A stretch of 29,521 bases of DNA, taken from positions 1-29,521 of the forward strand of contig JAYENL010000093.1 of NCBI GenBank assembly GCA_034722055.1, given 5' to 3'. A program made the position numbers. Numbering within the stretch: position 1 is the first letter of the stretch; each line of letters opens with the position of its first letter. Positions 1 through 15,000 of the stretch are shown here, piece by piece. This DNA comes from Armatimonadota bacterium. Its GTDB lineage: Bacteria; Armatimonadota; Zipacnadia; Zipacnadales; UBA5352.

Positions 1-3000
1 GGCGGAGGATGGTGTGCACCTGGCGAGGACTTTGGGCCAGCCGCTGATCCCGAAGAACACCCCGCCGTTCAACAGCGTCTATCTGCAGCCGCAGGCGAAC
101 CCGGTGCGCCTGGGCGAGCGGCGGCTGTACTGGTACCGGTCGGGCAAGAGCGGCAGCGAGTGGAACATGGCGACGATCCGGCTGAACGGGGAGGCGCTGT
201 ATCGGCTGGACACGTCTGCGACGGAGGGCATGGTGGAGACGTGCGAGCTGTCGCGCCGTGGCGAGATGTGGGACGAGCTGCGCGTGAACGCGGCTCCGAA
301 GGACGGCACGGTGGAGGTGTCGGTGCTGGATGCGGCGACCGGAGAGCCGGTGCCGGGCTTCGATTACGACGACTGCGACGGAGTGAGGGATGACGTGGAG
401 CAGCGGGTGAGCTGGCAGAGCGCGGGTCTGAGCGAGGTCACGTGCGGGCACGTAAAGCTGCGCTTCCGGCTGCGCAGACCCACGGCGGAGGACGCGTCCC
501 CGGAGCTTTACGGATGGATGATTGCGCCGCCACGGGCAGCGGATCGGCCGACGGTGACCACAGTGCAGGTGGAGGGGAAGACCAACCCGGCACGCGTGGC
601 GGATCCGCAACCGGAGCTGTCGTGGGAGTACGAGGATCGGCTGGACCGAGAGCAGACGGCCTACCAGGTGCTGGTGTCGTCGTCTGAGGAGAAGCTCGAT
701 GCCGACGAGGGTGACCTGTGGGACACGGGGGTGGTGCTCTCGGGCGAACACGAGGTGAAGTACGGGGGCGCGGAGCTGGATTCGGAGCGGACGTACTTCT
801 GGAAGGTGCGTGTGCGCAACAGCGAAGGAGCGTGGTCCGAGGAATGGTAGCGTCGGGGGTCTTCACGACGGCGAACCTGACATCGTACTGCTCGGCGGAG
901 GACGTGCTGGAACTGCTGCGGGCGTATGATCTCTCTGACTGGGGAAGCGAGGAGGAGCTGACAGGGAGGATCGCGGGGCTGCTGGGGGAGACTCGGGCGG
1001 CGATCGACAGCGCGGCGGGCCGCGACTTCCTGCTGCACGCGGACGAGACTGTACACGTGGACGGAACGGGGACGCGGGTGCTGCTGCTGGGGCCGCTTGG
1101 GCTGACACCGGTGGTGTCGGTGGAGAGCGTGAGCGTGGATGGCGCGGAGCTGGAAGCCGACGAGTGGCTGCTGTATCCGGAGGAGACGGCAATCGTGCTG
1201 GCGGCGTCCAGCGATCTGGGGAGTCGGTTCCCCGAGGGGCGGCAGAACATCACGATCGTGCTGGACTGGGGATACGAGCAGACGCCGGCGGATGTGCGGA
1301 CAGCGCAGGCGAAGCTGACGGCTGCAGAGCTGCTGGCGCGGATGACGGGCGAGGAGGGTGGGGTGGAGTCCGTGAGCGTGGGAGACTACAGCGTGAGCTA
1401 CGGAAGCGCCGGCCGGTTTGCCTACAGCGTGCGGCGGCTGGTGGCCGAAGCGAATGAGGTAGTGGCGCGCTACCGGCGGCTCGACTTCTGCGCGATCTGA
1501 GAGGAGGCTGACCTGCGGATGGTAGATGCGACCTTCCGGGAGCTGATGACCGGTGAGGCGGCGGTGATGCGTCCGGATGTGGACCTGGACGGCGAAGGGG
1601 GGCTGAAGACGCCGGTTTACGAGGAAGTGCAGAGCGGGGTGCGAGTGCGGATCGCGCGGGCGAGGACGGACAGCGAGGATGACCTGCTGGGCAGGGCGGA
1701 GGACATCAGCCACGTGGCGTACGGCGAGGTGGTGGATGTGCGGCCGGCGGACCGGCTGGTGACTCGGCCGGTGCAGACGGCCCTGGCTGAGGACGTAGAG
1801 AGTGGGGCGACGGAGCTGCCGGTGGCGTCCACAGATGGTCTGCATGACGGCCAGGATGTGGAGATCGGTGCAATCGTGGAGGAGCGGGTGATTACGGTCG
1901 TGGGCGCAAGCTCGATTACGGTCAGCCCGGCGCTGGAGGCGGAGCACAGCGCGGGTGAGGCCGTGAGGGTTGTGGAGCAGTACGAGGTGGTTGCGGTGGA
2001 GGACGCGGCCGGGGCAGGTCATCACCTGCGGATGATGGTCAGGAAGCTGTAGAGGCGGGAGCGGTGAGGACGGCGGATCGAGTCATGGCGGGCGGCCTGG
2101 AGGCGGAGGCCGCCCGCCAGCGATTCGGGAGCGGCGCATCAGATACAAGCGAGGCGGGTACCGCGATACGGAGGGAAAGCGAGTGGCAGCAGACATGTTC
2201 CGCCAGAACGAGATCGCGCGGGCGATCCGCATGCTGTGCCAGGGCGCGACGGCGCTGACGGCGGACGCGTCGGGGGGCGACCAGGTGAGCGTCGGCTCGA
2301 ACGAGATGTTCGAGGTCGGGCAGCAGGTGCGACTTCGAGACGCAGCCGGCGAGGAGGAGAAGACGGTCTCGGGGCTGGTGGGCCTGACGACGGTGAAGTT
2401 CACTGAGGCGATCAGCGGCGAGTACCTGGTGAGCCGGGGCGCACGGCTGGAATGGGCGGACAACCCGCTGGGGACCGTGCAGTGGGTGGGCCAGGGATCG
2501 CCGGAGCTCATGCCGCGGTCGCCTGTGGAGCGTTTCCCGTGTGTGCTGGTGCTTCCCGGTGAGATGCATCAGCCGCTGAACGAGGGGACGAACCGGACCT
2601 TCCAGCAGGATTACAGCTTCAGGGTCTACTACGTGATGCAGCACGATGAGGGTCAGCGTGCGAACATTGAGGTGCTGGATCGAGCGGCGACGCTCTTCAA
2701 CGTGCTGATGGCAGACCCCTACCTGGGAGGGACGTGCTGGCACAGCCAGGTGACGAGGGTGGATCCGGACCCGGCAGTTCAGGAGCGGCTGAGAGAAGAT
2801 GAGCGACCGCTGCGGGTCGTGGAGCTGACGGTCATGGCGCGGCGAGCGGCGCTGTGGAAGCCGGCTTGACAGAGTTTGTGAGGAGATCAGGCGCTGAGAG
2901 CGCGGAGAGATACAGGGTGGTGTGAGCATGGCCGTGGCACTTGCACAGGAGGGCAGCTTCGGCTTCGGGCTGCAGGTCGAGAGGGGGACATACGAGGCGC

Positions 3001-12000: not shown

Positions 12001-15000
12001 GGTGGCGGCGTGCTGGTGCGAGACCACCGCCGCAGAGGCCATCAGCGGCCTGACCGACGGGGCGGTCAACCACGTGTTCCTGGAGGCGACCTCGGACTCG
12101 CCCCCGGAGGGCGACGTCTCTGTGTTCGCCCAGCTCTCCAGCAGCGGGCCGACCGACGCCATCTACCTGGGGACCATCGAGCTGGATGGCTCAGGCGCGG
12201 TGGTGACCATCGACAACCACGCGGAGGGCGTGGATCGGCAGTGCTACTCGCTGGCCTGGCGGAGCGTCTCGGGCGAGGGCACGGAGGCGGATGTGCCGGC
12301 CGGTGAGCAGGTGAGCTTCACGATTACGCACGAGCCGCTTCGGGTGCCGGGCGCGATCAGCCTGGAGTCGAGCTCTCCTGACTTCACGTGGGAGATCAGC
12401 GAGACGTGGCGGTCGGACAGCTTCACAGTGACGGTGACCAACAACGGGGGCAGCCAGGCGGACTTCGAGTACACCTGGACGAGGGAGGGCATCGCGGAGT
12501 AGTGGGCGTTACGCGGGCGGTGGCCGAGGATCCGGCCCCGAGCGTGAATGCTGGGGAGAGCTGAGGCCCGTGGAGAGCTCAGGACACCTGACGATGGTGC
12601 TGGCGGCCCTCGCGGGGCAGGTCTGGCCGTTCCTGCGATGCACCACGGCCGGGGTGCTGGGGGCGCTGGCGAACGTGGCCCTGGAGGACCAGGTGGTGGT
12701 GCTGCCGAGGATGGAGAGCGGGCGACTGCACCTGGGATTCCTGGGGAACCTGATCGTGGCCGTGACGATGGCGCACGTGGTGGACAATGACTTCGCGACG
12801 GCATTCTTCGCAGCGGTCTGCGGGACGACGACGCTGCGGACCCTTAAGAGGCGCATCGAGAGCGCCTTTGAGGAGGAGCGGAAGGAGATGGGCGAGGATG
12901 ATGACGCCGGCTGAACTGATGTGCGCACAGGTGGTGACCCTCGTCTGCGAGGGGCTGTTTCTGGCTGGCGCGGCGCTGGTGTGGCGAGCGCTTTACCACA
13001 TGAGGATCAACGGGGCCTGCCAACTGGGGCTGGGCCTCTTGGTGGTGTTGCGGGTGAGTGCTGCTGCATCGACGATAGGCGGCCCGCCGCAGAACCCTCT
13101 GACGTGGACGTGGCTCACTGAGGTGCTGTTCAGCTTCTCGTTTCTGTACCTGCTGTATCACATGGGGGCGCTGGTCTCCGCGTGTCGGAGGTAGGTGCGC
13201 CCGAGTCTGCTGCATCGAATCAGCGGCGCCCGCCCTCTGTGGCGGGCGCCAGCCATTAAGGGAGGCGATCGGAGGATGGAGGTCATCGGCGAGTGGCTGC
13301 GCGAGATCCTGCTGCCGGGTCTGGGCACACTGCTGGTGGCGGCGGTACTGACGCTGGTGCGGCGCTACATCAACCGGCTGGACGATGAGCGCCTGCGCAG
13401 GCTGCTGCTGGAGCTGGTGCGGGCCGCGGAGCAGATCTACGGCCCCGGCCGCGGAGCGGCCAAGAGGCGCTGGGTCACTGAGAAGCTGCGCGAGATGGGC
13501 GTCGGGCCGGTGGAGCGTGACCGGCTGGAGGCCGCGGTGTACGAGCTGGAGAGCGACGCTCAGGCGACGCGGGAGTGACAGGCTCGGGAGTGCGGGCCGG
13601 GGATGATTCCCGGCCCGCACTGCATGTACTTCGGCGGAAAGGTGGCGGGACGGGATGCCGGTTGAGCGCGAAGTGAGCATGGAGCAGTTCGGCGCGCACC
13701 TGCGTGAGGTGCAGGTGGGGCGGCGCATCGATGAGGTGATCGTGCACCACACGTGGCGGCCCAGCGCGTCGGACTACCGGGGCATCGAGACGGTGCGGGC
13801 CGTCCGGCGGTATCACACGGGAGTGCGCGGGTGGTCGGACAACGGGTATCACGTGATGATCGGGCCGGATGGGAGCATCTTCCTCTGCCGGCCCCTGCAC
13901 CGGTCAGGCGCCCACACCGCGGGCAGGAACGCCCACAGCGTGGGCGTGTCCTTCATCGCGAACTTCGATCACGATGACCCCGAGCACTACCAGGGCCTGA
14001 CCACCGGGCACGAGGTGGTAGCCGCGCTGCTGGAGCGGTTCGATCTGGGAACCGCGGCCATCAGGTTCCATCGGGAGTTCGCGCCGAAGACCTGCCCGGG
14101 GCTGAAGCTGGGGCTGTCCGCCTTCCGCGAGGCGGTGGCTCAGGCAGGGGCCCGGGCAGCCGGCCAGCGGCCGAAGATCGTGCTGCTGCCGGGCAGTGAG
14201 CTGGTGTCGTGCAACGCGCGGATCGAGGACGGCGTGACGCGCGTGGACCTCAGGCCGCTGGTGGAGGCACTGGGCTACCGCATCCACAACCACCTCCGCG
14301 ACCAGGGGAAGCTCTACCTCGCCCGGTGAGGGGGTGGGGTGCCGGCTTGCGGGGGGAGACCGGGTCCCTCGGCCCGCGTCGGCGTGCCTCTTCTTGCGGA
14401 CGTACAGGCCGATATGATATACTACACCTCGTTCCCCCCGATCCGATTCCATGGCGGACGGGGGGTTCGATCTCAGGGCCCGAGGAAGAGCCTTGGAGGC
14501 ATTAACATACGATGAAGAGGACACATCAGCCAAAGAAGAAGCGCACGAAGCGCAAGAGCGGCTTCCGGTCGCGGATGAAAAGCAAGGCCGGCCAGCGTAT
14601 CATCAAGCGGCGCCGAAAGAAGGGCCGCAAGCAGTTGGCGAAGTGACGGCGCTCCGGGTGCGGCAATCCGATAATGGCTCGCCTGAGGACACTCCGCCGA
14701 CAGCGCGACCTGGACCGCGTCTTCCAGCACGGTCGCTGGCGGCGCACCGACACCGTGGCTGTGGGGGTCCGACACCGCTCGGACGATGAGCCGACGCGCC
14801 CGGCATTCGTGGCGGGGAGGCAGATAGGGACAGCCGTGCGGCGGAATCGCGCCCGGAGGCGCCTGCGCGAGGCCTATCGGCTTCTGGCGGATCAGGTGCA
14901 GCCGGGTGCCGACGTTGTGCTGGTCGCCAGGGAGCGGACGGGCAGCGCGGACTTCCGCGACCTGCAGGCTGAGATCGCACAGGCGCTGCGGGCGGAGGGG

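Follow-up and report, generated by a model that had tools for sequence, protein, structure and literature searches.

A 22-kb gene set in the genome of an Armatimonadota bacterium (G000) probably encodes, judging from sequence, a virus particle that has been tamed and may carry DNA from cell to cell, since it has no recognised genes for copying or insertion and is inherited and kept intact like host genes. With moderate confidence, we regard it as an old siphovirus-derived and independently domesticated operon for a short-tailed particle, most likely working as a candidate gene transfer agent (GTA). GTAs are defined as caudoviricete-derived, virion-like particles that package mostly random host DNA and deliver it to other cells, with genes that are fully endogenized, mostly vertically inherited and, given a small head, not fully packaged themselves (PMC9662315). 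The window analysed is the whole of contig JAYENL010000093.1 (C93, 29,521 nt), while the head part of the cluster lies on contig C128. The end of C128 and the start of C93 share a 146-nt overlap with one mismatch, and in G042 a single contig spans the entire cluster, congruent with the contiguity claimed in an earlier note on this DNA. The cluster thus runs as a single 22-kb unit in the order terminase, portal, protease, capsid, neck, tail and lysis, with host genes on both sides.

The gene content described earlier was recovered by PHROG and Pfam matches, on C128 for the terminase large subunit (29606-31093), portal (31420-32655), prohead protease with a probable scaffold (32652-33542) and major capsid protein (34239-35189), and in the window for adaptor, tail tube, holin and amidase. 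By sequence similarity these would be parts of a virion-like particle made of caudoviricete-derived proteins. The nearest cultured relatives found are phages of Vibrio, Streptomyces, Gordonia and Clostridium at ≤35% identity, and solved-structure searches with the terminase, the capsid and two tail alignments returned no match. Among the capsid matches listed, the nearest cultured relatives belong to 52-134-kb phages, so the head may hold the entire 22-kb cluster. The ATPase and nuclease motifs of the terminase are kept in 29 aligned sequences, the last nuclease motif being deviant in one. Most terminases need a small terminase. In the regions examined, the gene preceding the terminase is either a host gene or a small-terminase-like gene, the latter directly before it in 18 genomes. 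As noted before, however, none was seen in G000: no homologue was detected there or in its family (0/18; a profile of 15 sequences reached E 1.7 at best), nor was one found in families f1 and f4. Following the capsid gene, a LamG and Ig-domain protein starts at C128 35323 and ends in the window (2..850; Ig_Rha78A_N E 6.6e-21, Laminin_G_3 E 2e-16; all window features are on the + strand); it measures about 1,130-1,190 aa in relatives.

The neck opens with the head-tail adaptor (718..1500, real start probably 832-844; phrog_442 E 1.9e-24), which has 217-222 aa in most relatives. Two conserved proteins follow, a putative head-closure (stopper) protein of 177 aa (1519..2052; no informative family match) and a putative tail terminator of 228 aa (2183..2869; no family match, 10 of 11 regions), both named by position. 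The tail tube protein (2922..3833; Phage_tube_2 E 4.3e-10, phrog_290) shares 54-76% identity with its counterparts in relatives. No PHROG or Pfam match to a sheath gene was obtained in the cluster, the genes before the tube encoding merely 177-228 aa, and the tail is consequently read as non-contractile. Next come a 98-aa protein seen in family f1 (3871..4167; weak phrog_856 E 0.005) and the presumed tail assembly chaperone G (4034..4630, real start probably near 4160), a role that we assume from its position and from the lambda G/GT pattern. A slippery A-run at its 3' end (4618-4624) recurs in all seven genomes inspected and in 12 of the 16 regions scanned, and leads into a 113-aa -1 frameshift extension, the GT form (4618..4959), with the motifs LREG..F and QPAWR..LW; in relatives the -1 frame is open for 96-127 aa with the same motifs. 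The tape-measure slot is occupied by a low-complexity ORF of 193 aa (4980..5561), possibly a shrunken tape measure, whose C-terminal motif is conserved. Across families, slot ORFs span about 110-330 aa and end on an R.[DE]L.R-type motif, and in viral relatives PHROG tape measures of about 600-720 aa occupy the same slot. The 193-aa ORF may nevertheless not work as a ruler, as it is proline-rich (8%) and family searches gave no match.

The gene earlier called tape-measure-sized did not hold up as such: the 1,060-aa product of 5622..8804 is modelled (pLDDT 77.6) as a beta-rich, putative tail-tip or adhesin protein, and the tape-measure assignment was rejected. The model comprises an optional N-terminal helical bundle, CnaB-type Ig-like domains (against CnaB2: Z 9.1, rmsd 2.6, 81 aligned), a four-cysteine motif and a C-terminal two-blade propeller unit (against the two-blade lectin BambL: Z 10.3, rmsd 2.1, 79 aligned). 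It is followed by a 103-aa BNR/Asp-box repeat protein (8801..9112; weak Pfam BNR below cut-off, 9 of 11 regions) and a putative distal-tail or hub protein of 768 aa (9197..11503), whose model has an N-terminal galectin/ConA-type lectin fold, comparable to CBM66 (Z 12.7, rmsd 3.7, 155 aligned) and to the evolved-Dit module of phage J-1 (Z 10.2, rmsd 4.7, 178 aligned). Its C-terminal half is possibly hub-like, as hinted at by the secondary-structure pattern. Matches, some distant, occur in 49 of the 79 class genomes for the 1,060-aa protein and in 51 for the 768-aa protein. A conserved 79-aa protein (11528..11767) and a conserved 239-aa protein with a C-terminal Ig-like part (11783..12502; weak He_PIG E 0.0016, 9 of 11 regions) come next, the latter perhaps a tail fibre or receptor-binding protein.

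The lysis region encodes a conserved small membrane protein (12570..12914; weak DUF4257), a second, hydrophobic one with homologues in relatives (12787..13194, real start probably near 12900), a holin (13195..13578; phrog_6918 E 4e-5, about 100 aa in relatives) whose G068 orthologue lies above the Pfam Phage_holin_6_1 cut-off, and an amidase endolysin (13655..14329; Amidase_2 E 1.6e-15, phrog_1493) in which the motifs HH and KTCPG are conserved. Family f4 has no amidase between holin and jag. Outside the element lies the host flank (14512..17733), where an L34 frame recognised by eye marks rpmH (14512-14646) and Pfam matches mark rnpA, yidD, yidC and jag.

Could the cluster still be a mobile temperate phage, or a helper-dependent satellite, that reinfects a preferred rpmH-yidC site? 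We disfavour this and consider it quite improbable. Its presence is patchy, the rpmH-yidC sites of G051, G044, G018 and G020 are empty, and two pairs of bins from separate genera share near-identical cluster contigs (G044/G045 99.9%, G069/G072 99.3%). Moreover, the f11 form carries a different head module, and on L203, a 57-kb IMG/VR contig, the tail module adjoins an unrelated portal gene. On the other hand, neither an integrase with attachment sites nor a repressor with a replication module, the marks of a temperate prophage, was found. A genome-wide search confined to tyrosine integrases found none on C128 or C93, as opposed to 22 matches in the genome, no integrase or transposase was recognised in the cluster by PHROG or Pfam, no tRNA was found in 19 loci, and no attachment repeat was seen, the longest repeat in the flanks measuring 15 nt and falling within coding DNA. 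The claim that no integrase, repressor or replication genes are recognised stands, and a true prophage used as control has replication genes. The six close IMG/VR capsid matches are pieces of the cluster in which other phage genes were not recognised, two being 100% identical to chromosomal copies. In the two best-covered runs, which may be the source samples, contig depth differs little between cluster and flank (15.3 against about 14, and 45-58 against 38-47). The f5 and f7 neighbourhoods differ, yet the gene order is unchanged.

Orthologous parts are present in 53 of the 79 class genomes, with a divergent form in two more (a union of several homologue searches and locus L118, counted by hand; the yidC control reaches 75 of 79), and are nearly always single-copy. 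Among 401 phylum genomes searched, the tail tube was found in no other class. The terminase was confirmed in 40 of 79 genomes at 90% identity within the genus, 68-76% within the family and 49-60% within the order, and the orthologues of f10 and f12, outside the order, also reach 57%. Half of the bins indeed lack a recognised terminase, but as a measure of cluster absence this is overstated, because several terminase-negative bins have tail genes. The shared gene order claimed earlier was seen in 11 of 11 regions examined, nine running from terminase to tail end and two stopping at a contig end, apart from the missing chaperone gene of G078. Fixation beside rpm applies to f1 (rpmH side) and to f4 (jag side, opposite orientation) but not to G051, G044 or the f5 and f7 regions examined.

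Descent was assessed with FastTree trees against a single host gene, RpoB. Over 20 genomes, 12 of 17 splits, including 10 of 10 well-supported ones, are common to the trees of RpoB and the 1,060-aa protein (shuffled mean 0.25). A single contig, probably mis-binned, accounts for the strong conflicts: the capsid and hub contigs of G069 are 93% identical to those of its RpoB sister, which leaves one discordant contig, the pattern expected from mis-binning. Synonymous divergence from G049 is also host-like (dS 0.28-0.55 for the cluster, 0.23-0.45 for host genes), which, together with the RpoB trees, supports mostly vertical inheritance with losses, the cluster co-diversifying with its host. The previously reported host-like selection was reproduced as well, with dN/dS of 0.05-0.19 against 0.11-0.20 for host genes; all six cluster stretches measured in this comparison with G049 stay below 0.2, constraint being strongest on the capsid gene. 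These values argue against the remnant of a dead prophage, whether left in place by chance or retained for one or two of its genes that are useful, as do gene lengths and a programmed frameshift preserved across families. We judge such a remnant very improbable, despite the frameshifted capsid gene of G078, the three-piece LamG gene of G042, genes missing from some bins and the undetected small terminase of f1 and f4.

CAGCTG is avoided, as noted earlier: the 22,025 nt of the cluster contain 0 sites, where its own 5-mers predict about 20, and C102, C98 and C122, all carrying phage genes, have 13, 7 and 7 sites; zero sites are also found in 113 of 151 host 22-kb windows. The tetranucleotide composition is atypical (92nd-97th percentile), similar to prophage contigs. 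Aggregated, host-gene flanks, absence of integrase, tRNA and attachment repeat, and avoidance of a host-avoided site mark the cluster as endogenized. Single copy number, vertical descent with losses, purifying selection and missing integration and replication genes support the proposed domestication, a case strengthened by the RpoB comparison, the synonymous divergence and the differences from true prophages whose genes belong to the same lineages.

For a domesticated GTA, one operon would be switched on in some cells by a host regulator, from a conserved promoter-like motif before the terminase. The reported upstream motif indeed recurs, as TTAATGG in 10 of 12 f1 genomes; no regulator was recognised in the cluster, and no SOS-type box upstream of it. 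Portal, protease and capsid would assemble an HK97-type head, which the terminase would fill with chromosomal DNA. Packaging would have little specificity, since the element neither excises nor replicates and a small terminase is not recognisable in several lineages. The shrunken tape measure and the G/GT chaperones would serve to build a short non-contractile tail, holin and amidase would release the particles, and the lectin and Ig domains would bind surface glycans of kin. DNA could then enter via the host ComEC route; ComEC is present, but offers weak support as 10 of 14 control genomes have it too.

The main rival, which we consider unlikely though deserving of attention, is a domesticated PBSX-like weapon, with heads carrying host DNA and a lectin-tipped tail that kills or damages sensitive relatives with no gene delivery. 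The same genomic signature would fit, glycan-binding folds abound at the tail end, and the contig of a distant G014 copy bears tail genes but none for a head. Killing tails are, however, usually long or contractile and strain-specific weapons usually show shuffling. Here, no sheath gene is among the matches, the tape-measure slot is very short, no toxin or immunity gene was recognised by PHROG or Pfam, and the tip genes track the host tree with a dN/dS of 0.23-0.35 within families, like neighbouring host genes, and without signs of shuffling. A precedent for the weapon is PBSX, a tailocin in its action although the DNA that it packages consists of random 13.4-kb stretches of the chromosome (PMC12946183). 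A headless tailocin (F- or R-type) was rejected, as head and terminase genes are present.

Less probable still is a non-genetic job, in which the particle genes either serve biofilms through controlled lysis that releases DNA, or build glycan-binding, glycosylated shells that promote adhesion or act as phage decoys. Much of the cluster encodes large LamG/Ig and lectin proteins, several lineages combine an undetected small terminase with a shrunken tape measure, and glycosyltransferase genes lie inside the clusters of f7 (one GT4, two GT9), G037 (two GT9) and G004 (one glycosyltransferase-like gene). Conversely, the f1 and f4 clusters examined have none, and a DNA-free particle would not need terminase and portal motifs or lengths kept at a dN/dS near 0.1. 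Returning to the GTA, we tentatively propose a class-wide, independent system that arose by stepwise domestication: loss of replication and integration, shortening of the tape measure from about 600-800 to about 200 aa in convergence with RcGTA, repeated loss of the small terminase, and particle glycosylation by embedded GT4/GT9 enzymes in some families.

If true, such separate, class-wide domestication would show that the taming of phage particles is recurrent, and would give uncultured bacteria a route for gene exchange. Virus catalogues meanwhile list clipped pieces of the cluster as viruses. Congruent with the claim of a first proposal for Armatimonadota, our literature search found no description of such a system, and few GTAs are known outside Alphaproteobacteria, as stated in PMC12946183. 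Recently described among these, in the same paper, are the GTA-like FpGTA operons of Faecalibacterium, near-ubiquitous in the host genus and with delivery unproven; they are podovirus-like and split over two loci, unlike the one siphovirus-type operon across a whole class found here.

The candidate Armatimonadota system resembles RcGTA as a siphovirus-type chromosomal head-tail cluster inherited with its host, and in its presumed short tape measure and sugar-binding parts; the RcGTA tape measure has about 216 residues, sugar-binding parts occur in both head and tail (PMC7296036), and its packaging is modelled as headful and non-specific (PMC7947584). It differs by lysis genes in the same cluster, the 1,130-aa LamG/Ig gene after the capsid, embedded glycosyltransferases in some lineages, the undetected small terminase of f1 and f4, and its cultured phage kin, and we infer an origin independent of the RcGTA family. 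PBSX of Bacillus subtilis is likewise a resident defective phage with head, tail and lysis genes in a single block, but its tail is contractile and it encodes a repressor and a sigma factor of its own, whereas no sheath, regulator or upstream SOS-type box was recognised here. The mycobacteriophages Che8 and Rita encode glycosyltransferases linked to capsid glycans, as stated in PMC11256854; the Armatimonadota GT4 and GT9 genes instead lie inside a domesticated cluster of some lineages, with putative particle glycosylation. Finally, the related phages (G057:C19, IMG/VR L204 and L206-L208, Vibrio and Streptomyces siphoviruses) share the terminase (44% for G057:C19, about 33% for cultured phages), the capsid fold and the tail-module order of tube, chaperone, tape measure and 1,060-aa protein. 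They differ in tape measures of about 600-800 aa and in replication or excision genes where seen: G057:C19 has an 801-aa tape measure and a helicase loader, and it and L206-L208 retain replication genes and long tape measures. With such true phages at hand, the convergence of tail shortening and small-terminase loss, as steps in the origin of GTAs, becomes testable.

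The window opens within a phage-like operon, which an earlier note had joined to C128, the contig of the same genome (G000) that holds the upstream half of the cluster. Indeed, the last 146 nt of C128 recur as the first 146 nt of the window contig, C93, with one mismatch and no other match in the genome, so the two halves are contiguous, and in the relative G042 the complete cluster lies on a single contig. C128 encodes the terminase large subunit, portal, prohead protease and capsid (PHROG E-values 1e-16, 2e-67, 2e-12 and 1e-82, respectively), and the window part (2..14329, forward strand) adds adaptor, tail tube, holin and amidase, in that order, followed by rpmH, rnpA, yidD, yidC and jag. 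Upstream of the terminase, the host genes comprise glycosyltransferases, a xylose-isomerase-like gene and an M14 peptidase. All 22 tyrosine-integrase matches of the genome lie outside C128 and C93, no tRNA was detected in the 19 loci scanned, and the longest repeat common to both flanks measures 15 nt, within coding DNA. The contig with dnaA is a different one.

Several local features accompany the operon. On C128 (locus L001), an N gap at ~13860-13990 interrupts the LamG gene; as the LamG proteins of relatives are ~230 aa longer, part of this gene is missing from the assembly. Two similar palindromic REP-like repeats at ~5425-5515 and 7300-7380, 5' of the terminase, bracket a membrane glycosyltransferase gene, and short tandem GCAAGC/ACAAGC-type units occupy the intergenic stretch ~5250-5395, 3' of the xylose-isomerase-like gene. 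Over window positions 1-14000 the GC skew is strongly positive along the cluster (0.16-0.31), falling to about zero past yidC.

The terminase was found in 40 of the 79 class genomes, the capsid in 34, the 768-aa protein (9197-11503) in 51 and the 1,060-aa protein (5622-8804) in 49, with yidC, as control, in 75. Taken together, orthologous cluster parts occur in 53/79, a hand count that includes G022 from its locus, leaves out the distant partial matches of G014 and G018, and covers some bins holding fragments only, as well as G044 via a possibly mis-binned contig. By family the figures are f1 17/18, f2 1/1, f4 4/7, f5 13/16, f7 16/17, f10 1/1 and f12 1/1; both f11 genomes have a divergent version, G004 combines the tail of the cluster with a different head, and f3, f6 and the eight genomes of f8, f9 and f13-f15 yielded no orthologues. 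Among 401 genomes of the phylum the tail tube was found in this class only (28 genomes), and the capsid has seven weak matches outside it. Against 1.84 billion representatives, the capsid matched one full-length cluster at 57%, with no other full-length match above 45%. The amidase adjoins rpmH-rnpA in G000, G042, G045, G046, G047, G049 and G052; the f4 clusters (G021-G024) are oriented the other way round and have jag at their end. In f5 and f7 the neighbours differ, and in G051, G044, G018 and G020 other genes fill the rpmH-yidC site. The site beside rpmH, proposed as fixed, is old in f1 and f4 without being fixed.

We then compared FastTree phylogenies with that of a single host gene, RpoB. 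For the terminase (29 genomes, being the 30 best loci minus G072, which lacks RpoB), 14/26 splits were in common, including 9 of the 13 well-supported terminase splits; the two strong conflicts both run via G069. Its terminase contig is 99.3% identical to a G072 contig over 6.3 kb including host flank, while its capsid and hub (768-aa gene) contigs show 93% identity to its RpoB sister G062. Similarly, G044 and G045 have a 99.9% identical stretch in common. For these identities, mis-binning is a simpler reading than recent transfer, and a mobile element is on the whole very unlikely. These near-identical cluster contigs (L005/L006, 99.9%; L192/L193, 99.3%) sit in bins assigned to different genera and are probably binning errors able to mislead tree comparisons. 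The 1,060-aa protein, compared in 20 genomes with a near full-length gene and RpoB, G069 and G044 not among them, gave 12/17 common splits, including 10/10 strong ones, and recovered f7; label shuffles averaged 0.25 common splits, with 4 at most.

Against G049, cluster genes display dN/dS of 0.05-0.19 (dS 0.28-0.55) and host genes 0.11-0.20 (dS 0.23-0.45). Terminase motifs are kept across 29 aligned sequences with one deviant, and protease and amidase motifs in most copies. A relic is, in our judgment, extremely improbable. The hexamer CAGCTG is avoided across the G000 genome (observed/expected 0.044), and its claimed absence from the cluster was borne out, with 0 sites against ~20 expected, compared with 13, 7 and 7 in the phage-gene contigs C102, C98 and C122. 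GTCGAC is likewise strongly avoided (0.050), and the two together suggest two long-resident restriction systems in G000. As a point against a host-like history, the tetranucleotide composition of the cluster is still atypical (92nd-97th percentile), and an amelioration test on it did not separate the cluster from the prophage contigs. Aggregated, the cluster is a real, old, host-maintained phage-particle operon, and its domestication is well supported and, in our judgment, highly probable.

The 1,060-aa product, of a size that had been taken for a tape measure, is ruled out in this role by its model (pLDDT 77.6, 30 sequences), which is almost wholly beta strand past a 110-residue N-terminal helical bundle, itself missing in several relatives. 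The modelled strands form Ig-like domains and, at the C terminus, a two-blade propeller unit; a search of the ESM Atlas with this protein gave no usable match. The N-terminal half of the 768-aa protein is modelled as a lectin fold resembling evolved distal-tail proteins, and its C-terminal half is modelled too poorly for a fold match. Sequence searches of solved structures with terminase, capsid and two tail alignments gave no matches, nor did the tail tube against cultured phages. The chaperone gene 3' of the tube ends in an A-run, with the -1 frame staying open for 96-127 conserved residues, as in the G/GT arrangement known from long-tailed phages. The slot that separates this frame from the 1,060-aa gene spans 660-1,360 nt in the regions measured and less in G043, whose ORFs are fused. 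Its ORF (4980..5561 here) is variable, low in complexity and ~110-330 aa long, with C-terminal residues kept across families, and we interpret it as a tape measure that has shrunk.

Related phages retain longer versions. G057:C19, which is lower in GC, has a terminase 44% identical to that of G000 and also encodes a helicase loader and a tape measure of 801 aa. Searching IMG/VR with the 1,060-aa alignment returned seven loci: L202, L203 and L205 represent the domesticated cluster itself, L204 has a 1,432-aa ORF in the slot without PHROG match, and L206, L207 and L208 carry the homologue at 23-28% identity, preceded by PHROG tape measures of at least 392, 722 and 596 aa, respectively. L206 also has an excisionase-like gene and one for a replication initiator. 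At L203 (7437-9688) the copy is broken in the 768-aa gene and adjoins an unrelated portal on the opposite strand, representing a second prophage insertion, a chimera or tail capture by a phage. Of seven IMG/VR capsid matches, six represent cluster pieces (74-90% identity), the seventh being a relative at 32%; among the cultured matches listed, the nearest capsid relatives belong to 52-134-kb phages. Two further loci depart from the common form. L121-L122 (G004:C56, ~3000-30800) is host-flanked and has the tail and lysis module of the cluster, but its head differs (546-aa capsid, S78 protease) and a gene for an SDH-type protease is inserted; either the head module was exchanged or domestication took place a second time. 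L195 (G014:C162, 6419-11208, reverse strand) is a distant copy amid pilin-like genes, its contig bearing tail genes only, with tube-like and chaperone-like genes, a 189-aa low-complexity ORF and a 908-aa homologue at 28-30%; with no terminase or capsid match in the G014 bin, it is possibly a headless tailocin-like derivative.

A small terminase had been reported missing from G000, and tblastn as well as 6-sequence and 15-sequence profiles likewise retrieved none there. Elsewhere, a 175-205-aa gene lies directly 5' of the terminase in 18/79 genomes (f2, f5, f7, f12); with an Atlas score of 0.94 to clusters in which 24% and 67% of members carry Terminase_5, it resembles small terminases. Searches in f1, f4, f10 and two genera of f5 yielded no homologue. 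Terminases are 70-200 aa longer in several f5 genomes and one f7 genome (L045, L047 and L048 of G026 and G037; G027, G028, G034, G040, G075) through an in-frame insertion near query residue 295 or 345, possibly inteins or inserted domains. One GT4 and two GT9 genes are also built into the f7 clusters, and two GT9 genes into that of G037; in f7 and one f5 genome, such genes lie inside the structural operon and share its orientation (L040 11104-12168 and 14218-15477; L041 11058-12113; also L135-L138 and L140). A GT9 gene 5' of the cluster in f1 was ruled out as an orthologue of the embedded f7 GT9 genes (27-39% identity over short stretches).

The motif GCTCCGG..TAYRTTAATGG lies ~120 nt 5' of the terminase start in G000, where we infer a promoter; as claimed for most f1, TTAATGG recurs in 10/12 f1 genomes. 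The TAYRTTAATGG core occurs once in G000 and therefore indicates no regulon. With the SOS-box pattern used, no box was found upstream of the cluster and the genome-wide count equalled that of the control; scanning the window for sigma-70 promoters and terminators gave chance-level results. Four sequencing runs of one study contain the stretch, two of them possibly its source and none recorded as RNA. One contig from the runs spans the lysis genes through yidC, and the only long joints had 21-22-letter sides and were taken as noise. Contig depth in runs X1 and X2 is similar over cluster and flank, which shows no strong amplification of the cluster in bulk DNA.

That terminase, portal and capsid are under selection implies that the heads would be DNA-filled, and for a cluster without excision or replication the chromosome should be the packaged substrate. 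A short tail, lectin tip and lysis genes would be consistent with particle release and kin recognition. With these same parts a PBSX-like weapon is conceivable, if rather doubtful; a non-genetic particle or lysis role is unlikely. Gene transfer is the leading reading of the particle's function, and we consider the case for it evenly balanced. In the literature searched, which left most subscription papers outside its scope, no prior description of this Armatimonadota/Zipacnadia cluster was found, and the main text of PMC10290634 uses 'phage', 'virus' and 'gene transfer' zero times each. Three of the six features in the GTA definition (PMC9662315), namely caudoviricete-derived particle proteins, endogenization and vertical descent, apply on the basis of sequence. 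Against a simple RcGTA-like picture weigh the small terminase not found in f1/f4, the degenerate slot ORF, the f4 clusters without amidase and the capsid relatives from 52-134-kb phages. In RcGTA the tape measure has ~216 residues (PMC7296036), compared with ~110-330 aa for the slot ORF here.
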